Shown: one piece after another, positions 9,147 through 59,616 of the stretch | How positions within the stretch are numbered: position 1 is the stretch's first letter | Layout of the letters: the number at the start of each line of letters is the position of its first letter | Origin: a bacterium | GTDB lineage: Bacteria; Patescibacteriota; Microgenomatia; Daviesbacterales; UBA10151 | NCBI GenBank assembly: GCA_021786315.1 | Contig: JAJYNN010000002.1 | Span: 462,997 to 526,996 of the forward strand | Direction: 5' to 3' | DNA length: 64,000 nucleotides | Notes under the pieces: generated by a model | Seen by the model: the letters and a program-made list of their open reading frames with translations, nothing else | Told to the model about the DNA's origin: nothing | The model's database searches: none | Made by a program: the position numbers and the translations under genes

Positions 9147-9923
9147 TTAACTAAACCTGGAGACTGCAGCCTGGTGGGCTTGGTTTTCTAAAGTATCATC
9201 CAAAGGTTCAAGTTTGATCTCTTTTCCATATTTTACTTCCAGGGCTTTTTTCAGCAACCAATCAGCAAGTTTGGGGTTTTTAGGCAGGAGTGAGCCGTGC
9301 ATGTAGGTGCCAACAGCATTCTTGTGGATACAGCCTTCGCTTTTGTCTTCCCCATTATTCCCGTGTCCTTTAACAACTGTACCTAAAGGTTTTGCCCCAT
9401 CTTTAAGATAGGTTTTTCCGGAATGGTTCTCAAAGCCTACAAGTGAATTAGGAATTAAGAATTTGGAATTATGAATTTCTTCGTTTTGCATTCTGAATTC
9501 TGCACTCTGAATTCGGATAACTATATTCCCGATCATCCGGTCAAAGCTGGCTTTGGTATAGGCCGGGAATAACCCTACTCCCGGAAGTTTTGGGCCTTCA
9601 TGCGGCTGGTAATAATCCCCCAATAGCTGATACCCCCCACAAATAGCCAGTAGCGGCACTCCTCTTTCTGCCTCTTCTTTAATAACCTTACCCTTACCAC
9701 TTTGTCCCAGATCCTTGGCTACTAATTCTTGGGCCTGGTCCTGGCCTCCTCCGAAAAAGAAAATATCCACATCCCCTTTCTTGAGCTTATCTCCTACTGA
9801 AATATGCCTGATTTCTACTTCAATCCCCCTCCACTGGGCCCGTTTCGTAAGGGTAATAATATTCCCGGTATCACCATAGATGTTCATTAAATCTGAATAA
9901 AGATAACCAAGGGTAATTTTCAA
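9147..9923 (-). CDS. gatD: Lipid II isoglutaminyl synthase glutaminase subunit GatD (CobQ-type GATase), TTG start
   Basis: GATase triad context AICGGYQLLG; adjacent to murT; carries an in-frame heptamer-repeat insert (EIHNSKFLIPNS). Confidence 0.8.
   Translation of the reverse strand: MKITLGYLYSDLMNIYGDTGNIITLTKRAQWRGIEVEIRHISVGDKLKKGDVDIFFFGGGQDQAQELVAKDLGQSGKGKVIKEEAERGVPLLAICGGYQLLGDYYQPHEGPKLPGVGLFPAYTKASFDRMIGNIVIRIQSAEFRMQNEEIHNSKFLIPNSLVGFENHSGKTYLKDGAKPLGTVVKGHGNNGEDKSEGCIHKNAVGTYMHGSLLPKNPKLADWLLKKALEVKYGKEIKLEPLDDTLENQAHQAAVSRFS
9446..9512. repeat. Heptamer array inside gatD coding sequence (in-frame)
   Basis: ggaattaagaatttggaattatgaatttc ... attctgaattctgcactctgaattcgg. Confidence 0.6.
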
Positions 9924-10001
9924 TTTTCAGTTTTTAATTTTCAATGAATTCTCAAATTCCAATTCTCAAACTTCGAAAATTGGTAGTTGGCACTTGAAAA
10001 T

Positions 10002-12941: not shown

Positions 12942-13013
12942 AGCGGGAGACGGGATTCGAACCCGCGACATCCTCGTTGGCAACGAGGCACTCTACCACT
13001 GAGTTACTCCCGC
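12942..13013 (-). tRNA. tRNA-Gly (anticodon GCC)
   Basis: RC reads GCGGGAGTAACTCAGTGGTAGAGTGCCTCGTTGCCAACGAGGATGTCGCGGGTTCGAATCCCGTCTCCCGCT. Confidence 0.85.
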
Positions 13014-13181
13014 GAACGTTAGTGAGCGGTGAGCACTTCCGCAGCCAATTTTTGGTTGGCGAGGAGTACTCCCACATTTTGGTGCCGCAGCCTGGAATAG
13101 GGCTACTCGCTAAAGCGAGATCCTGTTCCTGTCTGCTTCAAAATTTGTCTTTGCTGACACAAGGTCAGCACGACAAACTTG

Positions 13182-13254
13182 TGCCGCAGCCTGGAATCGA
13201 ACCCGGATAAGACGCTCTTCAGGCGCCCGCCTTGACCAACTTGGCTACTGCGGC
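13182..13254 (-). tRNA. tRNA-Phe (anticodon GAA)
   Basis: RC reads GCCGCAGTAGCCAAGTTGGTCAAGGCGGGCGCCTGAAGAGCGTC..CCGGGTTCGATTCCAGGCTGCGGCA; one G-A mismatch in the T-stem. Confidence 0.8.
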
Positions 13255-13362
13255 TAGTCTACTAGACGCCAGCAAACGAGGTGTTAAACTTTGTAAACAC
13301 CGAGTTTACTGCGACGATCAAAACTAACCAATTTTATCTAATTAACCTCTGTTATGCAATTG

Positions 13363-13435
13363 TGGGCACTAAGGGACTCGAACCCCTGACATCTACAGTG
13401 TAAATGTAGCGCTCTACCAACTGAGCTAAGTGCCC
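13363..13435 (-). tRNA. tRNA-Val (anticodon TAC)
   Basis: RC reads GGGCACTTAGCTCAGTTGGTAGAGCGCTACATTTACACTGTAGATGTCAGGGGTTCGAGTCCCTTAGTGCCCA. Confidence 0.85.
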
Positions 13436-13488
13436 TCGCTTTGCTCGGTCACTTGCGATAGTTCCGCTACGCGTGTAACTATCTAAAG

Positions 13489-13582
<94 letters not shown>

Positions 13583-13593
13583 TTGGTTGCTTG

Positions 13594-13676
13594 TGCCGAG
13601 GACAGGACTTGAACCTGCACGCCTTTTGGGCACTACCACCTCAAGGTAGCGTGTATACCAGTTTCACCACCTCGGC
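13594..13676 (-). tRNA. tRNA-Leu (anticodon GAG), long variable arm
   Basis: RC reads GCCGAGGTGGTGAAACTGGTATACACGCTACCTTGAGGTGGTAGT..GCAGGTTCAAGTCCTGTCCTCGGCA. Confidence 0.8.
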
Positions 13677-19048: not shown

Positions 19049-20038
19049 TTATTTCATTACGGAAACAAGCGGTATATGGTAAGTATAGTTTACTGATTGA
19101 AGGGTAGATGGCGGTGCTGGGTCAGCAACAATTGAAAATCGTTCATTAAGGCGGGCATAGCGGTTATTTACTATGACATAGAGCTTTCCTGACTGGGTTG
19201 GGCGGTCATTGCCAATCCGGAAGGTAATGGCTGTGTCTTCCCACATCACATCACCTGTCCGGGGGATAACCGACGCCAGAACAGCTACTCCGCCATCGTC
19301 GTGTGCCAGCCAGACCTGCAAGGAATCGACTCTGACGTCCGGAGTCAGGAAATTGTTTCCTGTAATCCGCACCGTGTCGCCCGGCCTGGCAGTAAGAGGC
19401 GTGACGCTGCTGATTGTCGGTCTGGGGTTAGTCCACCAGATGTCAGCGCACTTCTCCGCCTTATTGGTTCCTGTGTAGAGTTCGATTAATCCCTCGGCGC
19501 TGTTTTGTCCGGAATCCCACCAGTCTCCGGGTATGATTTCAACCCAGGATTGGCCGGAATCGGGTGTTAGGTATAGCGTCATGTTTGAGGTGTTACTCAC
19601 CAGGACTTTAGCTGCCTCACTGGGCGATGTTGACTTTAGTTTGAACTGTGGTCCGTTGGCGCAGACTGATGGATTCCACCTGGTTCCTGCGAACGGGTTT
19701 TCTCCGGGGTTCCCTATTTGGAATCCATATACCTGGTACATACCAGAGGACTCGGCGTCGAATTGGGCTCTCGTCCATTCCTGGTTGAGTTGCCGGGTGA
19801 CACCGCTAGGAAGACTATACCGGAAATAGGTTGTTGACTGAACCTGGGCAGCAGGATTGCTCCTGGCTTCCCATGAGGTCATCAAGTGTCCGCTGTTGTC
19901 GGGCTGGCTCCAGGTAACCGTCCAAAAGAAATAGGAAGGTCCTCCCTCTCCAACCGGAGATTCCAGGGTGGCGGCGCTGGCCCAACTTGACGAAAGCGCC
20001 ACAAGGATCGCGATGATTACTGCTGATACTCGCTTCAT
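19049..20038 (-). CDS. Secreted hypothetical protein (signal peptide, possible IPT/TIG-like C-terminus)
   Basis: N-terminal signal MKRVSAVIIAILVALSSSWASA. Confidence 0.5.
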   Translation of the reverse strand: MKRVSAVIIAILVALSSSWASAATLESPVGEGGPSYFFWTVTWSQPDNSGHLMTSWEARSNPAAQVQSTTYFRYSLPSGVTRQLNQEWTRAQFDAESSGMYQVYGFQIGNPGENPFAGTRWNPSVCANGPQFKLKSTSPSEAAKVLVSNTSNMTLYLTPDSGQSWVEIIPGDWWDSGQNSAEGLIELYTGTNKAEKCADIWWTNPRPTISSVTPLTARPGDTVRITGNNFLTPDVRVDSLQVWLAHDDGGVAVLASVIPRTGDVMWEDTAITFRIGNDRPTQSGKLYVIVNNRYARLNERFSIVADPAPPSTLQSVNYTYHIPLVSVMK

Positions 20039-20280
20039 TTTTCCTCCACGTTTGTCTCGTACCTTTTTCCCTTTTAAGATTTGAGAAAAAGCTTGTTATC
20101 TGTAATTTTAAAGAGCTATATAAAACCAAATATCGGCTAGGATTCAGACGGAAAACCGCACTGAGCTAACTTTAACTTGGAAACAATATTTTACTAAAAA
20201 AAGAGAATTAAATCAAATGCTATGAGCCTAATAAAATTAGCCTCTAACCTGAATTTAACATGATTATAGGATAAATTTAA

Positions 20281-42473: not shown

Positions 42474-43394
42474 TTGTGTAAGATCAGTGATATGAAAAGC
42501 GCTTGTAGACTTTGCGGAAGTGGAAACATTGCCAGTTTAAGCAAAAGCATGGATTATTCCCAATGCGGTGATTGTCAATTTGTCTGGAGTAAAAAAAGCC
42601 AAAATGTACACTACAATGCGGACTATTACCAAGGACGATCTTCACTTCTTTCAGCTGTCTTTTGCCTCATCTTTAACTTCTTCTATTGGCTCAGACGACA
42701 GTATGTAGGTGATAAGAAATATAAACTGTGGATTGATGTTGGGGCTGGTGACGGAGCTTTTCTAAAAACTGTAAAAGCAGACAAGCGAATTGGAGTGGAG
42801 ATCTCTTCCTCAGGAAGACAGATGATGCAGGATTTAGGACTAGATGTCCTCTCAGATAAGGAATTTCTAAAAAAATCCTGCTTTAAAGCCGATGTGATCT
42901 CTTTTTGGCATGTGTTGGAACATACCTCGGATCCGGAGAGTTATATCCAAGCCGCCAAACAAAACTTAGCCCCAACAGGCAAACTTGTTATTGGTGTTCC
43001 CAATATCAGCAGTTGGGAGTTTAAGCTGTTTGGCAAAAAGTGGTTTCACTATGCCCACCCTTACCATCAAAGGCACTTTTCTCCCAGTTCTCTTGGTTTT
43101 CTGCTGCAAAAAAATGGATTTCGAGTTAAGAAGAAGGATTACTTTTCTCCTGAGCATCATTTTTCCGGATTGTTGCAGTCATTTATTAACTGGCGGTCCG
43201 ACTCCAAGGATGTGTTGCATAAGCTAACCAAAAGAAGTTCGGAACAGTTTACGGGGATGAGTTTTGCCAACTGGCTTTGGGTATTATTTTGGATAAGTTT
43301 AGGACTTCCTTTAGTAGCTGCCTTCTGGGTTTTTGCTTCTTTGACTGGGCGCCCCGGAGCATTTGTGGTGGTAGCTACCCTTAAAAAACGTTAA
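42474..43394 (+). CDS. Class I SAM-dependent methyltransferase with N-terminal zinc ribbon and C-terminal TM
   Basis: CRLCGSGN..CGDCQFVW; WIDVGAGDGAFL motif I; LAPTGKLVIGVPN. Confidence 0.65.
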   Translation: MCKISDMKSACRLCGSGNIASLSKSMDYSQCGDCQFVWSKKSQNVHYNADYYQGRSSLLSAVFCLIFNFFYWLRRQYVGDKKYKLWIDVGAGDGAFLKTVKADKRIGVEISSSGRQMMQDLGLDVLSDKEFLKKSCFKADVISFWHVLEHTSDPESYIQAAKQNLAPTGKLVIGVPNISSWEFKLFGKKWFHYAHPYHQRHFSPSSLGFLLQKNGFRVKKKDYFSPEHHFSGLLQSFINWRSDSKDVLHKLTKRSSEQFTGMSFANWLWVLFWISLGLPLVAAFWVFASLTGRPGAFVVVATLKKR

Positions 43395-44944
43395 TCTTTG
43401 GAATAGATAATTAGATCTTTGCTTTGGAAAACCGGTTTTAAGAAAGAATACCCTAAGACCTTTGCTTGTGGGTTTTGGCCCAATTGTTTTTCTTCTTCGC
43501 CCCAAACTATGTAGGTAATATCTGCCTGATCCAAAAATCTTTTCGCGCTTTCCGTAGAAACTTTTTGAGAATAAAAAGCTGCCAGATTTTGAATTTTTTC
43601 TGAAGCATGGGGAGTCTGTAATAAATGGCCAAAATACACTCTTGCTTTTGTATTAGCAGGTATATAGTTTCCTAAAGTATATCCGCTTAAAACCCCGGCA
43701 TTGTCTTTATCGGCCAGATAGTCTAGAGCGTTTTTTTCGTCAATACTTAAATAAAACCAATGGTTGTCCTTTTTAACCTCCTGAATCCGTTCACTAAACA
43801 TAAAAAAGCTGGAAATAGATGTTAACACCAGAAACAATCCTATCAATATTTTTAAAGGCAATTTGGAAGTTTTAGAAATCTGGTCTAAAGCGAAGACAGA
43901 GAGAATAATTCCCGGGAAAAATAACCCTCTCAAATAAAATCGGGCAAATCCCAGGGGAATAAAGGCTAAAATTATACTTGTTATGAACCAAACATTCAGG
44001 AACATAACCCCCTCCCCTTTTGGCTTTTTTATGAACTGATAGATTAACAACGGGGTTAATACTCCATAGCCCGAGATAATCTGAAAGATATTAGGTGTGG
44101 TTAGATTTTGGGAAAGTACGCCGGAAAAACCATTATTCCCTTTTAAACTGAGGAAATAAGCCCAAAAGACAATTACTGCTGGTGTAAAGATAAGTAAAAA
44201 ATTGAAGAAAGGCTTTTTTTCTCCATCACGGAAATACAGGATTAGGGAATAAAGACCGGCTATAATGGCAAAACTCGCCAGGTAATAGGGGTAAAAAATG
44301 ACCAGAAAGCCAAGAGAAATAAGAGAAAAAACAAGCCATTTTCTTGTCTCCTCTTTTGTCGCTAAATAGAAGCTAACTAAAGATAGAAGATAAAAAATGA
44401 TTCCAAAGGCTTCATGGGGACGCTGGAATTGGCTGGCAAAAGTAAATCCGGTGATATAAAGGTCCGAGGATTGGAAATTAGGAAAAAATAACCATCCCAC
44501 TCCTCCACCCAGGGCAATGGCGATAGTTGCCATCAGTGAAATAAAACGGGCTTTTAAAAAGATCCTGCACAAAAACCAAAGTGTAACAAGCAGGATAAAA
44601 CCTGAGATAATTGCTGCCAGGTGAAAAAGTAACTGCGGTGAAGTTTGGGGAAACGCAAATCCTGTCAGTGTATAGACAGGATACATCAGCACTGAAGGAT
44701 GCGTTTGGGCAGTGTAGGTATTTTGCAGCAGTAGTCCGTGTCCTTGCCCCCACCTGATTGCTGCCACGTAAACATTGATATCCCAGGGGTCAAACCAGGA
44801 AGCCTGACCGGAAAAACTCTTTCCGGAAGGAGTGTTTTGCCAAGCGTAATAATCAGGAAAATGATAAACAAAAAGTATGGAGATGGATAATAGGAGAAGG
44901 GCAATAATTGTAAATATCTGTTTTTGTTTCATAACTACCACCAA
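43391..44944 (-). CDS. Polytopic membrane protein, putative GT-C glycosyltransferase
   Basis: ~12 TMs; part of the same island. Confidence 0.45.
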   Translation of the reverse strand: MVVVMKQKQIFTIIALLLLSISILFVYHFPDYYAWQNTPSGKSFSGQASWFDPWDINVYVAAIRWGQGHGLLLQNTYTAQTHPSVLMYPVYTLTGFAFPQTSPQLLFHLAAIISGFILLVTLWFLCRIFLKARFISLMATIAIALGGGVGWLFFPNFQSSDLYITGFTFASQFQRPHEAFGIIFYLLSLVSFYLATKEETRKWLVFSLISLGFLVIFYPYYLASFAIIAGLYSLILYFRDGEKKPFFNFLLIFTPAVIVFWAYFLSLKGNNGFSGVLSQNLTTPNIFQIISGYGVLTPLLIYQFIKKPKGEGVMFLNVWFITSIILAFIPLGFARFYLRGLFFPGIILSVFALDQISKTSKLPLKILIGLFLVLTSISSFFMFSERIQEVKKDNHWFYLSIDEKNALDYLADKDNAGVLSGYTLGNYIPANTKARVYFGHLLQTPHASEKIQNLAAFYSQKVSTESAKRFLDQADITYIVWGEEEKQLGQNPQAKVLGYSFLKPVFQSKDLIIYSKD

Positions 44945-46683
44945 TAAGGATTTTTCGATTTTTCCAGGTATTTTTGGATAGTTGGCGGGACAAAAATACT
45001 GTTTTGGGTATTAGCTAAGTTAGCCATTACCAGGTTTCCAACCGGAGAATCAGGAAAAAGGCTTAAGGCTTTTTCATCGAAAGCTTTAGCGCTGTTTAGA
45101 TTTTCCGTATTAAAGAGAAAGATGCTTGTTCTAAGGTATGACAAGTGGTTATCAAAAGAATAATCATCAGGTTTAATTTGGTCGAGGTCGATTGCTTTTA
45201 ACCCCAGTCTTTGGGCCGCCTCATCTTTTACTAAAATAATCATAAAATCATCCAGATAGACAACTTTCCACCTCGGATCTTTGGTGATAAAACTAAAGAA
45301 GGTTTTGGCCCAGGGAGTTTGGTCGGTGTGAGAGAAGATGATGGTTTGGAAATTATAATGTTTGTCCGCCTCGGCAAAATTTTCCGGAGACTCCTGCATG
45401 GGTATATAAATTTTTTGGAAAAAGCTGGCAGGATAGGCTTCCGGACGGCCGTCAACAAAGACTTTATACCGGGGGAATCCCCGGTAAATAATATAACTCC
45501 CAATATCAAAATTATTAAAAATTGGTTGGGGCAAGTTGTGGTCTAAAACAAAGTCCATCGCTTTCTGAACTTGGGCGCGATATTCAATTTTAGGTAAAGT
45601 GTTTTTATCACTATACCTATAGTAATCGCCGTCCAGGTAAATGAAGCTTTCAAAAAGCAAGATTGCAATAGTCAGCCCTGCTATGGATATAGTAATCCAT
45701 GATTTTTTAATGGTACCAAAATTTAAAACTGCGGCGGGTAAAGTAATTAAAGCTAAGTAGGGAAAACTACGGACATTAGCTAAGGCTAGTATTATTCCGG
45801 CAGAAACAAGTAAAGAATTTTTAAGGGAAAAGTTACGGCGGACTAAAGAAACTGCCAAAGAGATTACGGCGATTAAAATTGAGAGTTTGACGAATAAATA
45901 ATCCGGATCCTTAAAATTTAAGCTTTCCAGAAGGAACATACTCTGGTTCTCGGCAATGGTATAACCATAATTCCCAAACACCTGTAACGGATAAATGAGT
46001 CCCTTAAATGTATTTGGGTTGAGTAAACTTACAAGCGGCGACAGTAAACAAACACCAAGCAGGATTTTAAAACGGGAAAAATCTTTTTTGGAAAGAAAAT
46101 GGACAAGGAAAATCCCCTGCAAAATAAACCCAACCGGGAAATAAATATGAGTATTGACCCAGAGAAATTGGATTACCGGCAAAATATAGACTAATTTCGA
46201 CTTGGTATTTTCAAATCTTGTAAGAATAAAGTATGTAAGTGCTGTAAAAAGGAAACTTAATATTTCCGGCCTGAGCTCTACCCTATCCCTTAACGTGTGC
46301 AAAAAGATAAATCCAATAGGCAACACCAAAAGGTAACTTGACCTGGGGATAACAGACAAAACCAACCCTAAAGAAACAAGCAAAAGGGCAATTTTTATCC
46401 ACAGGATTGCACCTAGCCCAATTGATTGTTTTCCGTAAAATAATAAAATCTCAAATAAATAATGGTGGTTGATAAAAGGAAAATCCGGATTTGTATAGGA
46501 AAAAAGATTTGTTTTGGGGACTTGTCCGGTGGTGGCAATTATTTCACCAAGTTTAATGTGCCTGCCTAAATCCTGGTCAAAAGAAAAATCGGTCCGGAAG
46601 GAAAAAGAGAAAACAAAAAAGAGTAACAGGATTATTGCTAAAGGGATCCTTTTAAGGGAAGCTGCCATACAACGATTGTACAA
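44935..46683 (-). CDS. Polytopic membrane protein, putative GT-C glycosyltransferase
   Basis: ~12 TMs plus a soluble C-terminal domain. Confidence 0.45.
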   Translation of the reverse strand: MYNRCMAASLKRIPLAIILLLFFVFSFSFRTDFSFDQDLGRHIKLGEIIATTGQVPKTNLFSYTNPDFPFINHHYLFEILLFYGKQSIGLGAILWIKIALLLVSLGLVLSVIPRSSYLLVLPIGFIFLHTLRDRVELRPEILSFLFTALTYFILTRFENTKSKLVYILPVIQFLWVNTHIYFPVGFILQGIFLVHFLSKKDFSRFKILLGVCLLSPLVSLLNPNTFKGLIYPLQVFGNYGYTIAENQSMFLLESLNFKDPDYLFVKLSILIAVISLAVSLVRRNFSLKNSLLVSAGIILALANVRSFPYLALITLPAAVLNFGTIKKSWITISIAGLTIAILLFESFIYLDGDYYRYSDKNTLPKIEYRAQVQKAMDFVLDHNLPQPIFNNFDIGSYIIYRGFPRYKVFVDGRPEAYPASFFQKIYIPMQESPENFAEADKHYNFQTIIFSHTDQTPWAKTFFSFITKDPRWKVVYLDDFMIILVKDEAAQRLGLKAIDLDQIKPDDYSFDNHLSYLRTSIFLFNTENLNSAKAFDEKALSLFPDSPVGNLVMANLANTQNSIFVPPTIQKYLEKSKNPYWW

Positions 46684-49382: not shown

Positions 49383-50024
49383 ATGCGGAAAAAAGTTGTG
49401 CCCTTAATTTTTCTGGGGTTAGGTGTTTTTTTGATAGTTCAGGTAGTTATGCCTTTAGTGGCTTATAAATACTGGGAGTTTACTGCTTATAATGAAAACC
49501 AGGCACTTTTAAGCCCCAATCCGGGGGCAGGTGATGTTTTGGGAGTTTCCGTCAAAAACATTGATAACTTTCCCGCCTTTGTTTCTAATTCGGAAAGAAG
49601 AAGCTCTTTGCCTTATGAAGACTTTACCCTATCCATTCCCAGTATTAACCTTGGAGCTACCAGGGTTGAAGTTGAATCAAACAGCTTTGAACAGAGTTTA
49701 GCCCAAATGCCGGGAACCGCGTTGCCGGGAGAAAAAGGCAATGTTTTTATCACCGGCCACTCTTCCCTGCCTCAATTTTACCGGCCGGGAAATTTTAAGG
49801 CCATCTTTTCTCACTTACCGGAGGTGAAAAAGGGCGATGAGGTTATTATTGAAGCCGGCGGCCAGCGGTTTGTCTATACTATTAAAGGCATGAAGGTAGT
49901 TGATCCTTCGGAAACCTGGGTTATTAATCCTCCGGACAACAACGGCAGATATTTATCACTTATGACTTGTGTCCCCCCGGGATTATATCTAAAGAGGCTG
50001 ATAGTTTTAGCTGAACTTAATTAG
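49383..50024 (+). CDS. Sortase-family transpeptidase
   Basis: His motif FITGHSS, Cys motif LMTCVPP, N-terminal TM. Confidence 0.7.
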   Translation: MRKKVVPLIFLGLGVFLIVQVVMPLVAYKYWEFTAYNENQALLSPNPGAGDVLGVSVKNIDNFPAFVSNSERRSSLPYEDFTLSIPSINLGATRVEVESNSFEQSLAQMPGTALPGEKGNVFITGHSSLPQFYRPGNFKAIFSHLPEVKKGDEVIIEAGGQRFVYTIKGMKVVDPSETWVINPPDNNGRYLSLMTCVPPGLYLKRLIVLAELN

Positions 50025-50490
50025 AAGAAAATATTCGGTCAATTTCTATGGCGACACTTCCTTGGATTCGTTTGAGAGCTTGCTCAAAAGTAATACCAGA
50101 AATTGACGCTAAACGGACAATACGGTTACGACCTACTTCGTTTATGCCATAGCCTAAAACTGCCACCGGGAGATGGAACCTTACAGCTTCAGCTTCTAAC
50201 CGCTTTGCCTCGTCACTATTTTTTGTATCTTCGATGTTTCTTATCTCCGGACGAAGTGTGAATTTTAAGACCTCATTGTAAAGCTCAACGACATTGTACG
50301 GGTCAATTTCGTGCCGGCAGACAAAAAGATCCCTGCCATCTTCGGTGGGAAAAACACCCATAATGGTTTTAAAATCTACCCTATTCTCGTAATGGCCATA
50401 GAGGTTGTACGTATTCACATCCTCTTTTGGGGTAAGCTGGGCAAAACGTGACATTATGTTTTTATAAGAAATACTCTTATCGACTTCCAT
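50017..50490 (-). CDS. Hypothetical protein (start moved to the internal Met so as not to overlap tRNA-Gly)
   Basis: ORF only. Confidence 0.4.
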   Translation of the reverse strand: MEVDKSISYKNIMSRFAQLTPKEDVNTYNLYGHYENRVDFKTIMGVFPTEDGRDLFVCRHEIDPYNVVELYNEVLKFTLRPEIRNIEDTKNSDEAKRLEAEAVRFHLPVAVLGYGINEVGRNRIVRLASISGITFEQALKRIQGSVAIEIDRIFSSN

Positions 50491-50525
50491 ATTAAAAAAT
50501 CCAGCCAGTAAAGGCTGGGTTGGAT

Positions 50526-50597
50526 GAGCGGGATAGGGGGATCGAACCCCTGACATTCTGCTTGGAAAGCAGACGTTCTACCGCTGAACTAATCCCG
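50526..50597 (-). tRNA. tRNA-Gly (anticodon TCC)
   Basis: RC reads GCGGGATTAGTTCAGCGGTAGAACGTCTGCTTTCCAAGCAGAATGTCAGGGGTTCGATCCCCCTATCCCGCT. Confidence 0.85.
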
Positions 50598-54712: not shown

Positions 54713-54788
54713 GGTGGCTGTAGCTCAGCGGTAGAGCGCCTGCCTGTGGAGCAGGATGTCGAGGGTTCAACTCCCTTCAGCCACCCCA
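54713..54788 (+). tRNA. tRNA-His (anticodon GTG) with encoded G-1 and encoded CCA
   Basis: G GTGGCTGTAGCTCAGCGGTAGAGCGCCTGCCTGTGGAGCAGGATGTCGAGGGTTCAACTCCCTTCAGCCACCCCA. Confidence 0.85.
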
Positions 54789-55830: not shown

Positions 55831-56316
55831 ATGGATTGGGTAAAGAAGCTAGCCTTTATTGTCTTTATTCTTTTAAGCCAACTGCCAATGGCTTTAATTC
55901 CTGCCCAACCCGCTTATGCCCAAACAATCCCCCAAAAAAGGATAGAGGTGGATTTAACCAACCAAAGGCTTTATGCCTACCAAGGCAATACGCTAGTCTA
56001 TAACTTCCCTATTTCTTCCGGAACCTTAATCCATCCCACCGTTACCGGAACTTATAAACCTTGGGGTAAGTATAGATATTACGAAATGATCGGGGGAAGC
56101 ACGGCAAACGGTGATTATTATGATCTCCCCAATGTTCCATATGTTGTGTATTTTTACCAGGGATACGCTATCCATGGAACCTATTGGCACAACAACTTTG
56201 GCCATCCCATGAGCCACGGATGTGTTAATGTCTCCATTCCCAATATGGCCCTGCTTTATCCCTGGATTGACTACTCCACCTCTATTACCATCTACGGCAC
56301 TACCCCCTCATACTAA
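55831..56316 (+). CDS. L,D-transpeptidase (YkuD domain)
   Basis: HGTYWHNNFGHPMSHGCVNV catalytic His/Cys motif; signal peptide. Confidence 0.75.
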   Translation: MDWVKKLAFIVFILLSQLPMALIPAQPAYAQTIPQKRIEVDLTNQRLYAYQGNTLVYNFPISSGTLIHPTVTGTYKPWGKYRYYEMIGGSTANGDYYDLPNVPYVVYFYQGYAIHGTYWHNNFGHPMSHGCVNVSIPNMALLYPWIDYSTSITIYGTTPSY

Positions 56317-56329
56317 ATATAAATATCTT

Positions 56330-56575
56330 ATAGTATTTGACTTTTAGAGATGGAAATGGTATTATTCAAGATACATTTAGGATCTGGTTGGGTTAATTTG
56401 CAACCTAAACCTGGTTTTACTTGTAAAAATTGCACTTTAATTTAATTGCGTTTGCTGGTAGCAAATTGGGAGTATCTACTTCCAGCTTGTTACCAGTAAA
56501 CAGGTGGGGTTTATTGAGTAGCTCGGGACCGACGGGGACCCGAAAATTTTAAAGAGTGACCTTAAAGGAGGACAC
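56330..56575 (+). promoter_or_regulatory. Long structured 5' leader of the 56576 gene (inverted repeats with G-U-compatible substitutions, RBS AAGGAGG)
   Basis: GTTTGCTGGTAGCAA ... TTGTTACCAGTAAAC arms; CGGGACCGACGGGGACCCG hairpin. Confidence 0.4.
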
Positions 56576-56995
56576 ATGGCTACTTTCTATCAAGATTCCA
56601 ACAATAGTGTTGTCGCCATCATGACAGAAGGCGATTATAAGCGAATGCTCGAGCGACGTGCCCTAGTTGACGAGACAGTCAAAAAAGGTTTGCCGCGACC
56701 ACAGTTGCCGCCGGTTACACCAATCTTTACTTTCTCATCTCCCGACCACCCTTCGTTCTTGTTTATGACTGGTAGTATCAACCTGATGAGAAAGCTACTG
56801 CACGGTCATAGCGTTATCCGAAGTGGTATCTGGGTGCCGTTTAGTAACGGCAGTGAGTGGAGCCTCAACGAGGAAGAAGCACGCTACGAGCGACAGTTTA
56901 GGACAAGTCTTGACCAAGCAATCGAAGCATTTGGACTGATGAAGTCCCAAGATTCAGCCGACAAGGTTGAGTCGACCATCGGTAGTCGTAGCTAG
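56576..56995 (+). CDS. Hypothetical protein (cassette gene 1)
   Basis: ORF with strong RBS; GC-richer than the genome background. Confidence 0.4.
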   Translation: MATFYQDSNNSVVAIMTEGDYKRMLERRALVDETVKKGLPRPQLPPVTPIFTFSSPDHPSFLFMTGSINLMRKLLHGHSVIRSGIWVPFSNGSEWSLNEEEARYERQFRTSLDQAIEAFGLMKSQDSADKVESTIGSRS

Positions 56996-57135
56996 ATCTG
57001 CTCAGTAAGCGAGCCCCACCCTCGCAATCAGCACCGGTAAGGTGAAGGGATAATGGATATGGATGTCGACGAGAGAAGCGAAAGCTTCAAATCAGAGATA
57101 ATTATATCTACCTAACACCCCCGGTGCTTTTCCGT

Positions 57136-57365
57136 TTATATCCTATAGAATTTGATTTTCACCCTCAAAAGTATTAAACTTTCATTTAACATTTAAGGCT
57201 AAATCAGGCTTTTTGCTGCCTGAGTTTGGCTTTAATTGTAATGTTTTTTGCACATTAACAGCTAAAAAGTTGCGAAAAAAAGCATGGCTCTTTTTAACCA
57301 TGAAGTATCGTGATTAGAAAGAGCTATGCTCAAATTACACGGATAACGCGAGGAGGAGGTTTTCA
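57136..57365 (+). promoter_or_regulatory. Conserved promoter-like block (TTATCCTATAGAATTTGATTT..AAAGTATTAAACTTT) plus ~200-nt leader with a 50-nt hairpin, upstream of 57366
   Basis: Block conserved with 57890..58113 and 59140..59229; hairpin arms GCATGGCTCTTT / AAAGAGCTATGC. Confidence 0.5.
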
Positions 57366-57791
57366 ATGATCGGCACAACTGGGTTTATGGATGAAGAAAA
57401 CTTTCAGGAGGTGGCGGACCGGATCGAGTTGATGTTTAGGGGAAAAAGATTAGCTTTTATGCAAACAAATGACAAGTATTTTCCCCCGGATTTAGAACCC
57501 GGCTGTACCTTGGAAAGCGTCTCAGCATTGAGATCGCTGAAAAGGATGGCAGTTCAGGTAACCTTGGTCATTACCTTGCCAAATGGCAGGAGACAGGGGT
57601 TATTTATCGAATCATCAACCGATACAAATGAGTGTGCTCATACGCGTTTCTCGTTCAGGGATGGAGCCCTATTTACCCTTCCCCGGACAGTCCCAGGATA
57701 TGGACCCCAACGGTACATCTGGATCAAGCTGGATGAACAGGCTGAGGAGAAAAAAGACAATTTATTACTAGCGATGGGGAGTAGAAGATAA
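57366..57791 (+). CDS. Hypothetical protein (cassette gene 2)
   Basis: ORF with RBS AGGAGGAGG. Confidence 0.4.
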   Translation: MIGTTGFMDEENFQEVADRIELMFRGKRLAFMQTNDKYFPPDLEPGCTLESVSALRSLKRMAVQVTLVITLPNGRRQGLFIESSTDTNECAHTRFSFRDGALFTLPRTVPGYGPQRYIWIKLDEQAEEKKDNLLLAMGSRR

Positions 57792-57827
57792 CAGAAAACC
57801 AGTTCGCAACTTAAGACTGTAACCGTG

Positions 57828-57872
57828 CATTGGGCGCTGTGGATTAAAACCCCAGCGCCCAATTGCGTTCTA
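57828..57872 (+). terminator. Intrinsic terminator (TGGGCGCTG..CAGCGCCCA plus TTGCGTTCT)
   Basis: Hairpin plus T-rich tail; the same design repeats at 59101..59143. Confidence 0.5.
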
Positions 57873-57889
57873 TACGCATATTACCTATA

Positions 57890-58113
57890 TCTTATCCTAT
57901 AGCATTTGATTTTTATTTCCCAAAGTATTAAACTTTACTTACACCTAAGGCTAAATTAAGCTAATTGCTGCTTAAATTTAGTTTTATGCGTAATCTTTTG
58001 CACATTAACAGTCCAATAGTCGCAAGAGAGCATAGCTCTTTTAGCCATAACTTAGGTTGTGGTTTGAAAGCGCTATGCTCTAAAAAAATAAAAACGTAGA
58101 GGAGAATAAGGCA
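57890..58113 (+). promoter_or_regulatory. Second copy of the conserved promoter-like block plus structured leader, upstream of 58114
   Basis: TTATCCTATAGCATTTGATTT..AAAGTATTAAACTTT..TTTGCACATTAACAG; hairpin GAGCATAGCTCTTT / AAAGCGCTATGCTC. Confidence 0.5.
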
Positions 58114-58587
58114 ATGACCCAAAGCCAAGGAGGACAGGTGTTAATTGGAGGACCATTCGATTACAGGCTAAATATGATAGCCGAACAGGAGAAAAGGACA
58201 AAGTCTTTTTGGGTGAATCCGCGTCATAAAATAGTGATCAAATACGGCGGATACAGGAAGGTCGAAATTTCGGAAGAACAGTCTATGGGTTTAGGTGAGG
58301 TCAGTTTTGAGCTGTCCGAAGGTACTATACCAACCACATTCCTGTTAGTTCCTGCAAAGCTTAACCATGCGGCCGAACACCAATGGATGTGGGGACACGG
58401 ACCGGTTATGCAAATGGCGGGATTACCCCCGCTGGACTATCAAATACCCGTGGAATGCTTCCGGAAAGAGATTAAGACTGTTGTGATCAAGTGTTATGAA
58501 GGAGTCACTCCTCAAAAAGTGGTATCTTGGCCTATTAACGGGCAAGAATGCACCGCCGCTTGCTACATCGTACTGAATTTAACCTAA
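58114..58587 (+). CDS. Hypothetical protein, paralogue A (CYEG-motif family)
   Basis: Paralogous to 58613..59086 (TVVIKCYEGVTPQKVV vs TVVVQCYEGIFPKDVV). Confidence 0.45.
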   Translation: MTQSQGGQVLIGGPFDYRLNMIAEQEKRTKSFWVNPRHKIVIKYGGYRKVEISEEQSMGLGEVSFELSEGTIPTTFLLVPAKLNHAAEHQWMWGHGPVMQMAGLPPLDYQIPVECFRKEIKTVVIKCYEGVTPQKVVSWPINGQECTAACYIVLNLT

Positions 58588-58612
58588 AAACCAAAACAAT
58601 AAGGGAGAGGTT

Positions 58613-59086
58613 ATGCTAGGAGGAATCTTCAGGCGCAGAGGTATGGCAAAGCTGGATTACCCGGCAACAGTCGAAGATCAGATCAATGAGAGGACAAAGG
58701 TTCTTAACGTTAACACAAAACAGGAAGTAGTAATTGTCTACTCCAAGGAAGGTCCTACTTTTTTCCAAGCTCCGTTTTCCGGCCGGGGACCGTTGGGCAT
58801 TTATGTCTTGCCCGGAACGAAGCCTACTTCGTTCTTTTTCGTAGTACCTGAATCTGATCCGGCGAAGGATCTTGTTCAGGGGATTGATAACTCCCCGGTG
58901 ATTCACGAGCCTGGTTTGCCGGCAGTGTATTCTCCGGTCTTAGTGGAGTATCTAAAACATGGTGTGAGGACAGTAGTTGTCCAGTGCTATGAGGGAATTT
59001 TCCCAAAAGATGTTGTTGAGCGTCACCCCCCTTACCAAACAACCTTTTTGGCCACTCATTACCTACAGTTACATTTTTGCGACTAG
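58613..59086 (+). CDS. Hypothetical protein, paralogue B (CYEG-motif family)
   Basis: Tandem paralogue, 25-nt spacing with RBS. Confidence 0.45.
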   Translation: MLGGIFRRRGMAKLDYPATVEDQINERTKVLNVNTKQEVVIVYSKEGPTFFQAPFSGRGPLGIYVLPGTKPTSFFFVVPESDPAKDLVQGIDNSPVIHEPGLPAVYSPVLVEYLKHGVRTVVVQCYEGIFPKDVVERHPPYQTTFLATHYLQLHFCD

Positions 59087-59100
59087 GACTAGTTTCGTGC

Positions 59101-59143
59101 ACTGGGCGCTATGGTTTTATACTGTAGCGCCCATTTGCGTTCT
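59101..59143 (+). terminator. Intrinsic terminator (TGGGCGCTA..TAGCGCCCA plus TTTGCGTTCTT)
   Basis: Same hairpin family as 57828..57872. Confidence 0.5.
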
Positions 59144-59229
59144 TATCTCATAGCTTTGATTTCAATTTTTCTTCCTCTTCCCTTACACACCTTTAGAGAT
59201 ACTTTAAACATTAAAAGTTAGGATGGGAG

Positions 59230-59616
59230 TTGAGAATGGATAGACATTCAGACCACAAACAACTAATTGCCGGTTGCTATAAACATCTTGAATCTATCTT
59301 TGCTGGTTCAAAAGAGGCTGTCTGCCTTTACCTGGATGACAGCAATAAAATCTGCAATAAAAAATTTGCCCAGCTTTTGGGTTATAACTCCCCCGATGAG
59401 TGGGCCAAAGTTGAACCGTTCTTAGAATCTTTTGTAGCTTATGACAGCCAGGCTTCGCTTACTACTTCTTATCTCTTGGCAATTGATAAGATGTTAGGCT
59501 CAAAACTCCGTGTTTTGTGGAGAGCCAAAACAGGGAAAATAATCCCGACAGACGTCATTATTATCCCGGTCATATTTAAGGATCATCTCTTCGCTTTGCA
59601 TCTTGTCTCGCCTTAA
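59230..59616 (+). CDS. Hypothetical protein (cassette gene 5)
   Basis: ORF preceded by a third copy of the TCATAGCTTTGATTT block. Confidence 0.35.
   Translation: MRMDRHSDHKQLIAGCYKHLESIFAGSKEAVCLYLDDSNKICNKKFAQLLGYNSPDEWAKVEPFLESFVAYDSQASLTTSYLLAIDKMLGSKLRVLWRAKTGKIIPTDVIIIPVIFKDHLFALHLVSP

Follow-up and report, generated by a model that had tools for sequence, protein, structure and literature searches.

Among the known systems that resemble the structures considered here are stem-loops that stabilize messages, such as those of the Escherichia coli ompA 5' untranslated region (UTR) and the Bacillus aprE and ermC leaders. Others are RNase III hairpins, including the early R sites of phage T7 and the rnc and pnp leaders, and promoter-carrying repeats such as the Correia elements of Neisseria and the BOX elements of pneumococci. 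Members of the candidate phyla radiation (CPR)/Patescibacteria cannot be grown alone and have genomes full of orphan genes, and to our knowledge almost nothing has been learned about gene regulation in this group. We analyzed a 64-kb stretch of a Patescibacteria genome, referred to as the window, in which positions 56320-59616 carry five plus-strand open reading frames (ORFs A to E) between a YkuD L,D-transpeptidase gene and a convergent DUF892/DUF2795 gene pair. Copies of a promoter and a structured leader head three plus-strand units at this locus, namely A (56576), B (57366), and C-D (58114). The leader is a plus-strand RNA structure kept by compensatory change, and it belongs to no known RNA family, making it new as far as we searched. 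An initial annotation had drawn attention to this repeated architecture; its observation was correct for the most part, and the support for the RNA structure is good considering how few copies there are.

The leader of each unit spans 135-153 nucleotides (nt) and folds into three hairpins, P1, Pm, and P2:

56370-56504, plus strand: leader of unit 1 (u1), with P1 at about 56372-56425 and P2 at about 56450-56501; matched by the covariance model and folding independently (z-score, -6.2)
57186-57338, plus strand: leader of unit 2 (u2), with P1 at 57193-57235, Pm at 57245-57280 (loop ACAUUAACAG), and P2 at 57281-57330
57938-58087, plus strand: leader of unit 3 (u3), with P1 at about 57946-57986 and P2 at 58027-58081

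P1, at the predicted 5' end of the message, is about 19-21 bp long; judged from the -10 boxes, transcription would start near 56372, 57187, and 57940, within 0-4 nt of its outer stem. Pm is a short A/U-rich hairpin presenting the conserved UUGCAC(A/U)UUAA (loop UUGCACAUUAACAG), and P2 is a hairpin of about 22 bp. P1 and P2 each comprise about two helical turns, interrupted by a bulge or an internal loop. If the predicted promoters are used, the transcribed leader would be about 175-205 nt long. The leader of about 230 nt that had been proposed initially is indeed structured, and its length shrinks once the promoter, which those 230 nt include, is set apart.

The regions ahead of B (57139-57365) and C-D (57893-58113) are about 75-86% identical over approximately 200 nt. 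We derived a covariance model (155 positions, 48 pairs) from u2 and u3 alone and searched the whole window with filters off. The model recovered the diverged u1 in full length just downstream of its promoter (35.5 bits; E = 6e-8), and no further plus-strand copy of the leader was found in the window. The remaining matches at E < 0.01 were reverse-strand echoes of the near-palindromic copies, plus the adjacent T1 terminator. A search of the whole window with Rfam 15 (4227 families) at gathering scores returned tRNAs only. Relaxing the threshold to E values of up to 10 over positions 56250-59300 gave four chance matches of 16-22 bits, all to eukaryotic models of small nucleolar RNAs, microRNAs, or long noncoding RNAs.

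The stems of the three copies have changed in a manner that preserves pairing. Between u2 and u3, 12 of the 48 pairs differ: 4 have changed on both sides, 5 have changed on one side and still pair, and 3 are broken. In the three-copy alignment, 94.3% of the pair cells hold standard pairs, and 20 of the 48 pairs change on both sides. None of 500 shuffled controls reached this alignment on any of five measures, and sliding the partners by 1-3 columns lowers pairing to 36-51%. Because the stem columns of u1 are less identical to those of u2 and u3 (47%) than the unpaired columns are (55-57%), and yet remain paired, selection appears to act on pairing rather than on sequence. The structure can also be seen without the model: before one was built, P1 with seven double changes had already emerged from MAFFT combined with RNAalifold, and u1 alone folds into the P1, Pm, and P2 hairpins. 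In a 50-nt hairpin whose arm differences between copies had been read as G-U compatible, one difference is so (G-U to A-U), whereas the other gives a U.C mismatch.

All three leaders give the same three-hairpin picture and fold much better than shuffled sequences (z-scores of -6.9 for u2, -5.1 for u3, and -6.2 for u1). Minimum free energies on the plus and minus strands are -50.5 and -28.6, -59.5 and -40.7, and -54.0 and -41.6 kcal/mol for the three leaders, such that the plus-strand RNA folds 12-22 kcal/mol better in every case because of its G-U pairs. Given these G-U pairs, the compensatory changes, and the better plus-strand fold, the element is an RNA-level structure and not a DNA operator, as had been proposed. 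Four unpaired elements are invariant in all three copies: the P1 loop has UUGC, P1 is followed by GUAA, and Pm carries UUGCAC and UUAA at its top; these are candidates for a recognition site. A search of both strands of the window detected no complementary partner for them. The shared motif ends 22-70 nt before the Shine-Dalgarno (SD) sequence, which in ensemble folds is unpaired with a probability of 0.35 in u1, 0.44 in u2, and 0.92 in u3. Minimum-energy, centroid, and ensemble folds all show three independent hairpins and no U-tract terminator after P2.

Upstream of the leaders, a 20-nt block, TATC(C/T)TATAG-N-ATTTGA(C/T)TT, occurs three times in the window (56324, 57139, and 57893), compared with about 0.01 occurrences expected by chance, bearing out the conserved promoter-like block of the initial annotation. 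In all three copies the block leads into a sigma-70-like promoter, with the core form YATAG-N3-TTGAY followed by a -10 box:

56324-56365, plus strand: unit 1 promoter, with box TATCTTATAGTAT, -35 TTGACT (56337-56342), a 17-nt spacer, and a TG-extended -10 TATTAT (56360-56365)
57139-57180, plus strand: unit 2 promoter, with box TATCCTATAGAAT, -35 TTGATT (57152-57157), a 17-nt spacer, and -10 TAAACT (57175-57180)
57893-57934, plus strand: unit 3 promoter, with box TATCCTATAGCAT, -35 TTGATT (57906-57911), a 17-nt spacer, and -10 TAAACT (57929-57934)
59143-59229, plus strand: region upstream of unit 4 (before E), with a degenerate box, TTATCTCATAGC-TTTGATT

The unit 1 promoter (TTGACT-17-TATTAT) was also picked up by a promoter scanner. 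The box is missing from most other good TTGAY-N16-18-TAnnnT promoter-like sites in the window. The claim that at least three units share the architecture holds for A, B, and C-D and fails for the fourth unit (ORF E, 59230): its box is degenerate, and its upstream region lacks both a good, correctly spaced -10 box and the P1-Pm-P2 leader. Farther downstream in that region, a possible second promoter, TTACAC-16-TAAACA, can be read by eye. One extra promoter-like copy of the box lies on the minus strand at 20223 (20188-20226, CTCATAGCATTTGATT-17-TAAAAT), about 150 nt upstream of a 329-amino-acid (aa) TIG/IPT-domain ORF (19049-20038, minus strand); P1-Pm-P2 is absent from the leader behind this site.

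The units end in terminators of two kinds:

57030-57138, plus strand: unit 1 terminator, a composite hairpin (about 100 nt) with GCACCGG/CCGGUGC as its closing stem, followed by the U-tract UUUUCCGUUU (z-score, -4.6)
57824-57880, plus strand: terminator T1 with flanks, after B (hairpin 57829-57863)
59096-59152, plus strand: terminator T2 with flanks, after D (hairpin 59103-59133 plus T-tract)

The TGGGCGCT..AGCGCCCA hairpin with its conserved flanks exists in two copies only, T1 and T2, which are 77% identical; it had been attributed to every unit, whereas gene A has the different, longer hairpin listed above. The box and leader are common to u2 and u3, and the terminator and box are common to the regions preceding u3 and E. 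The intergenic regions are therefore mosaics.

The proteins behind these shared upstream regions do not form one family, contrary to what had been assumed:

56576-56995, plus strand: ORF A, 139 aa, a small CPR protein kept in other CPR bacteria
57366-57791, plus strand: ORF B, 141 aa, an orphan with a strong ribosome-binding site (RBS), GGAGGAGG
58114-59086, plus strand: two-gene operon C-D, with 25 nt separating C from D
58114-58587, plus strand: ORF C, 157 aa, first gene of the operon
58613-59086, plus strand: ORF D, 157 aa, second gene of the operon
59230-59616, plus strand: ORF E, 128 aa, with weak PAS-like similarity under the Pfam threshold

Only C and D are related, as the tandem paralogues with an invariant CYEG motif that they had been taken for (30% identity; E = 1e-15); sequence comparison detected no similarity among A, B, C/D, and E. 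The lack of recognizable domains was likewise upheld, since A to D have no match in Pfam, NCBIfam, PHROGs, or PADLOC, and E has only a subthreshold PAS_9 match (E = 1e-3), as a small stand-alone PAS-like protein. The ORFs look coding because the annotated frames score best for codon usage, although these scores are lower than those of the long genes of the window. Word-indexed searches of 5.8e9 proteins found no homologues of B, C, and D other than themselves, and searches of PDB sequences gave no match for the proteins of the locus. A HMMER search of 1.84e9 representatives with a C+D profile gave only borderline matches (E of about 3e-4), covering residues 40-106, to repetitive immunoglobulin (Ig)-like proteins, namely unrelated multirepeat surface proteins (SpaA, Big_6, and DUF11). 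These matches are spread over different families, and we took them as a sign of beta-strand composition rather than homology; they may reflect a small beta-sandwich or only that composition. An AlphaFold 2 model of C had a mean confidence (predicted local distance difference test, pLDDT) of 49, too low for use.

Gene A is the only ORF among A to D with homologues elsewhere. Ten, at 52-63% identity, occur in metagenome-assembled genomes (MAGs) labeled candidate division WWE3, Saccharibacteria, Patescibacteria, and Paceibacterota; the contigs from other CPR genomes that bear gene A homologues are numbered L083-L099. Judged from these labels, the source of the window would be a CPR bacterium, most probably of WWE3. 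In these genomes gene A is a single gene amid housekeeping genes, and hence the array is specific to the genome studied here. A long P2-type hairpin precedes gene A in three of these contigs and covaries across species, 13 of the 27 predicted pairs having changed on both sides; behind it lies an unpaired GGYGGG that does not vary:

P2 hairpin of the gene A leader: window 56450-56516; L084:5870-5935; L090:1895-1950; L088:2800-2905

Because P2 is conserved across species with covariation and the GGYGGG element, the gene A leader would seem to be a separate RNA motif, not described before and wider in distribution, as judged from these predicted folds. A YATAG box lies beside the -35 element upstream of gene A in L084, L088, L096, L097, and L098, and in L096 and L097 it also precedes a small gene just upstream of A.

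We consider a locus-restricted co-regulation module the most likely explanation of these observations. In our estimate there is a somewhat better than even chance that the locus consists of three paralogous modules, each with a sigma-70-type promoter that carries the shared box and a cis-acting structured 5' leader, driving A, B, and C-D. Each module would combine the shared upstream/-35 box (YATAG-N3-TTGAY) with the plus-strand leader P1-Pm-P2 and would drive otherwise unrelated units, each closed by its own terminator. One transcription factor or sigma variant may bind the box, and the box-bearing units, probably together with E and the gene at 19049-20038, would then form a small regulon. 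More broadly, a small regulon to which gene A belongs in several CPR lineages could have the box as its operator or promoter-specificity element. As for history, the module may have arisen from the promoter and leader of the conserved gene A and then been copied before the lineage-specific orphans B and C-D; this origin is suggested by the occurrence of the P2 module and the box in further CPR genomes.

That the leader itself is a selected, plus-strand, cis-acting element we regard as likely, while any one specific mechanism for it is a tentative proposal, less likely than not. The leader would act after transcription starts and without metabolite sensing, a reading favored by the position of P1 at the predicted start, the accessible SD, helices of RNase III size, and the conserved unpaired elements. 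The 5'-terminal P1 would shield the mRNA from 5'-end-dependent decay, and a trans-acting protein or RNase III-type processing could have its site in the long duplexes or in the unpaired UUGC, GUAA, and UUGCAC-UUAA. The leader would set mRNA stability or processing, or offer a protein-binding site, and would work together with a transcriptional operator that the units share; its conserved single-stranded elements hint at a factor that binds them. A bolder proposal, which we think improbable, is that P1-Pm-P2 represents a new class of cis-regulatory RNA, read by a dedicated trans-acting CPR factor and coupled to the ATAG-box operator. It would then be a portable unit that this lineage copies before orphan genes, either newly gained or newly born, to let them join an existing regulon centered on gene A.

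Several points weigh against the co-regulation module. The covariation statistics come from three related copies in one genome within 2 kb, a very small set of sequences, whose alignment was moreover fitted to the covariance model. Promoters and transcription starts are consensus predictions from the sequence. The shared motif is not obviously connected with either the SD or a terminator, its proposed mechanism is read from anatomy alone, and in u2 the P1 upper stem with its U-rich 3' arm looks terminator-like. The model scan of the source genome covered 64 kb of approximately 943 kb, and no significant full P1-Pm-P2 was found with two covariance models (R1 and R2) in about 130 kb around the gene A homologues. 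One weak match there (L084:2454-2556; E = 0.0014) was rejected because it consists of a terminator and a single hairpin. When public collections were scanned with exact patterns, all matches were due to chance. The pattern TAAGGCTAAAT-N30-55-TTGCACATTAACAG had no matches in a collection of public genome contigs that does not contain the source genome. The 20-nt promoter box gave single matches in 64 metagenome contigs and 15 viral contigs, all due to chance and confined to the box by blastn, and a conserved-loop pattern gave two chance matches in viral contigs.

If the module is functional, it would show how reduced genomes wire new genes into an existing control circuit, and its RNA or DNA could be used as bait with which to find the regulator. 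A module confined to this genome would remain a local curiosity. The locus offers a testable pair, namely a promoter box common to several CPR genera and a structured leader reused on unrelated orphans.

Sequence similarity between neighboring intergenic regions raises the question of neutral origin. The copies could be leftovers of a recent segmental duplication or gene conversion, with hairpins that have no function beyond that of the ancestral gene A leader, an account to which we assign a small probability. The full motif was found at this locus only, in scans of the window, the gene A neighborhoods, and public collections. The adjacency and 75-86% identity of u2 and u3 fit such an account, the 77% similarity of T1 and T2 suggests copied intergenic DNA, and three metagenome samples carrying the locus show no sequence variation. 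Whole units were not duplicated, however, as the ORFs behind the copies share no similarity. Moreover, u2 and u3 are unlike at 12 stem pairs, of which 9 still pair, 4 of them through double changes, and u1, with stems only 47% identical, has 94% of its cells paired, which would not be expected without selection on structure. Confinement to one locus, which the initial annotation had named as a ground for refutation, therefore stands for the full motif as far as it was searched for, whereas a simple recent tandem duplication does not, because the ORFs are unrelated and the third copy has diverged in its stems and is still paired.

The terminator-like appearance of P1 in u2 leads to the possibility that transcription stops at P1, either as a terminator within the leader or as the 3' boundary of an independent RNA some 55 nt long, with the ORFs expressed by regulated read-through (attenuation). 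In u2 the P1 upper stem is followed by GUUUGGCUUU and was flagged as terminator-like by a scan, and the 3' arm and tail of P1 are U rich in all three copies. This U-rich tract, however, pairs with an upstream A-rich tract in the lower P1 stem, and the P1 upper stem of u3 has two G-C pairs only, whereas the genuine terminators T1 and T2 have G+C-rich stems. With no antiterminator alternative in minimum-energy or centroid folds either, we judge attenuation quite improbable.

The initial annotation had suggested a riboswitch or RNA thermometer, that is, a leader sensing a metabolite or temperature to control the downstream genes. The 5' UTRs are long, structured, and covarying, the unpaired UUGC, GUAA, and UUGCAC-UUAA are conserved, and a small hairpin in u1 partly covers the SD (0.35 unpaired). 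Against a riboswitch, even the relaxed Rfam search at E values of up to 10 gave no match, and the leader consists of three simple near-perfect hairpins in which no multihelix junction or pseudoknot is evident. The copies share no terminator/antiterminator or SD-sequestering alternative, the u3 SD being 0.92 unpaired, and the controlled genes are unrelated orphans without a metabolic theme. Aptamers are conserved across many taxa before functionally related genes, whereas the full motif was found at this locus only. A thermometer of the ROSE or fourU type would require the SD or AUG to be paired in a weak hairpin of the conserved element, and an SD-covering hairpin is found only in u1, as part of a gene A-specific module and not of the shared motif. 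The suggestion of a riboswitch or thermometer is thus very unlikely to be right.

Much the same slim chance applies to a small mobile or dispersed repeat with an outward promoter and a transcribed hairpin, similar to Correia, BOX, or RUP elements, of whose genome-wide family the locus would hold a local cluster. A modular, hairpin-rich block of about 200 nt with its own promoter is what such a repeat would look like, the mosaic intergenic similarity (terminator and box for u3 and u4, box and leader for u2 and u3) is compatible with it, and the examined portion is 64 kb of a genome of approximately 943 kb. Yet every copy has one orientation and a fixed position relative to the promoter and ORF, and no other copy was found in the 64 kb or in the related CPR loci. 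Terminal inverted repeats and target duplications are not visible at the boundaries of similarity, and no transposase or recombinase gene is nearby.

Finally, that the palindromes act in DNA (as operators or cruciforms) or belong to an antisense transcript is barely credible: the inverted repeats are near perfect and the model scores P2 on the minus strand at 24-30 bits, but the G-U pairs become A.C on the other strand, which folds 12-22 kcal/mol worse in all three copies, several changes are of the type G-C to G-U or A-U to G-U, and no minus-strand promoter-like site lies upstream of the copies.

Besides the shared motif, the gene A leader contains elements of its own. Two GGACC boxes spaced 4-9 nt apart occur in 11 of the 12 distinct gene A homologues examined, L099 being the exception. 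Their distance from the start codon downstream ranges from a few nucleotides to about 45 nt, except in L098, where they span it, and they can pair as a GG(G)ACC/GG(G)ACC(C) hairpin with a central A.A mismatch:

56524-56571, plus strand: gene A-specific module, a hairpin CGGGACC-GACG-GGGACCCG (56524-42) followed by a small GACCUU/AAGGAGG hairpin
GGACC boxes: window 56524-56571; L083:834-856; L084:5946-5999; L087:880-900; L088:2929-2950; L090:1961-2008
GGACC boxes, continued: L092:636-658; L093:1839-1859; L095:9958-9982; L096:9942-9962; L097:599-619; L098:about 9978-9996

The small GACCUU/AAGGAGG hairpin partly covers the SD (GGAGG, 56567-71), and the second GGACC-type element embeds the SD in L084, L090, and the window. 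The GGACC element matches no Rfam family and could be a putative translational operator, possibly for protein A itself.

Other features of the gene A homologues were seen in passing. A second group has the promoter TTGACACTATRGG...TG-N-TAnAAT, with a CTATAG-like hexamer after and not before the -35 element. We take this string to resemble the core of the phage SP6 promoter (GTGACACTATAG), while sigma-70 spacing and an extended -10 fit it better. The terminator in the 3' UTR of gene A, RCGCYGYARGATATGGAAA...TTTCCCYCTATCTTRCRGCGTTTTT, is conserved between species, a degree of sequence conservation that is unusual for a terminator:

Promoters of the second group: L083:about 800-830; L087:about 813-840; L092:about 610-640; L093:about 1775-1805; L095:about 9890-9920
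Conserved gene A terminator: L083:1290-1345; L087:1325-1380; L092:1090-1145; L093:2285-2335

A LOOT RNA (RF03000; 85.8 bits) lies at L099:5942-6060, on the Paceibacterota MAG contig with the most distant gene A homologue, and is unrelated to the leader.

The GC content of the locus is 0.433, compared to 0.422 for the window, and 35% of equal-sized windows equal or exceed it, so the region is not richer in GC than its surroundings as had been claimed. The flanking genes were correctly named, with matches to YkuD on the left and to DUF892 and DUF2795 on the right:

55831-56316: YkuD L,D-transpeptidase gene, left flank

On the right, the 3' end of ORF E overlaps the 3' end of the convergent DUF892 gene by 4 nt (59613-59616), with no intervening terminator. 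Contigs from other sequencing runs have an identical layout, and the intergenic regions compared are 100% identical. Between 42.4 and 63.3 kb, the neighbors encode a methyltransferase, a deacetylase, HIT, sortases, a Y-family polymerase, a GH5-like protein, cohesin, and YkuD, as well as DUF892, DUF2795, NAGPA, and DksA/TraR. ORFs 43391-44944, 44935-46683, and 50017-50556 within this interval have no Pfam match. The window holds 13 tRNA genes in total, including one at 54714-54785, about 1.6 kb upstream of the locus, and six clustered on the minus strand within approximately 750 nt (12942-13676).

The proposal of a stress or defense gene family found no support. PHROGs gave no match for A to E, a PADLOC search for similarity to known defense proteins was empty at E values of up to 0.1, and no recombinase, transposase, mobile-element, or phage gene lies within about 10 kb of the locus. 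We also rejected a prophage moron, given the absence of PHROGs matches and neighbors that are chromosomal cell-envelope and stress genes. A defense island, a toxin-antitoxin system, and a sigma-54 promoter were rejected as well, their defining features being absent.

Compared to described systems, the locus resembles integron attC arrays in that small, same-strand, mostly orphan ORFs are split by similar structured repeats. It differs in the promoter and terminator that each unit has of its own, in repeats that lie 5' of the ORFs and contain the promoters, in the absence of R''/R' cores (RYYYAAC/GTTRRRY), and in the lack of an integrase gene within about 10 kb. An integron cassette array was rejected on these grounds, since a lone ATTTAAC upstream of the u2 P1 has no GTTRRRY partner and no intI-type recombinase is present among the genes at 42.4-63.3 kb. 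With Correia and BOX elements the locus shares a block of about 150-200 nt that supplies a promoter and a transcribed stable hairpin beside genes; unlike them, its few copies show no inverted termini, lie close together, all face the same way, and keep a constant distance to the start codon. The orphan leader and "motif" families of Rfam are similar in their sense orientation upstream of genes, support from covariation, and lack of a known ligand or partner, but they span many taxa rather than three copies in one genome.

Parallels are also found among hairpins that act on mRNA decay and processing. Like RNase III hairpins, those of the leader are about 20-22 bp long with a bulge or internal loop, recur between short units, and keep structure more than sequence; P1 (19-21 bp) and P2 (22 bp) would have the length required of a putative RNase III substrate. 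Here, in contrast, there is no phage context, and as each unit has its own promoter and terminator, processing would be needless for separating messages. Like the stabilizers of the ompA, aprE, and ermC type, the leader has a stable hairpin near the 5' end of a long 5' UTR, clear of the SD and with an accessible RBS, a comparison made with predicted rather than mapped 5' ends. Unlike these stabilizers, it comprises three hairpins with conserved single-stranded elements, and one leader is placed before three unrelated genes.

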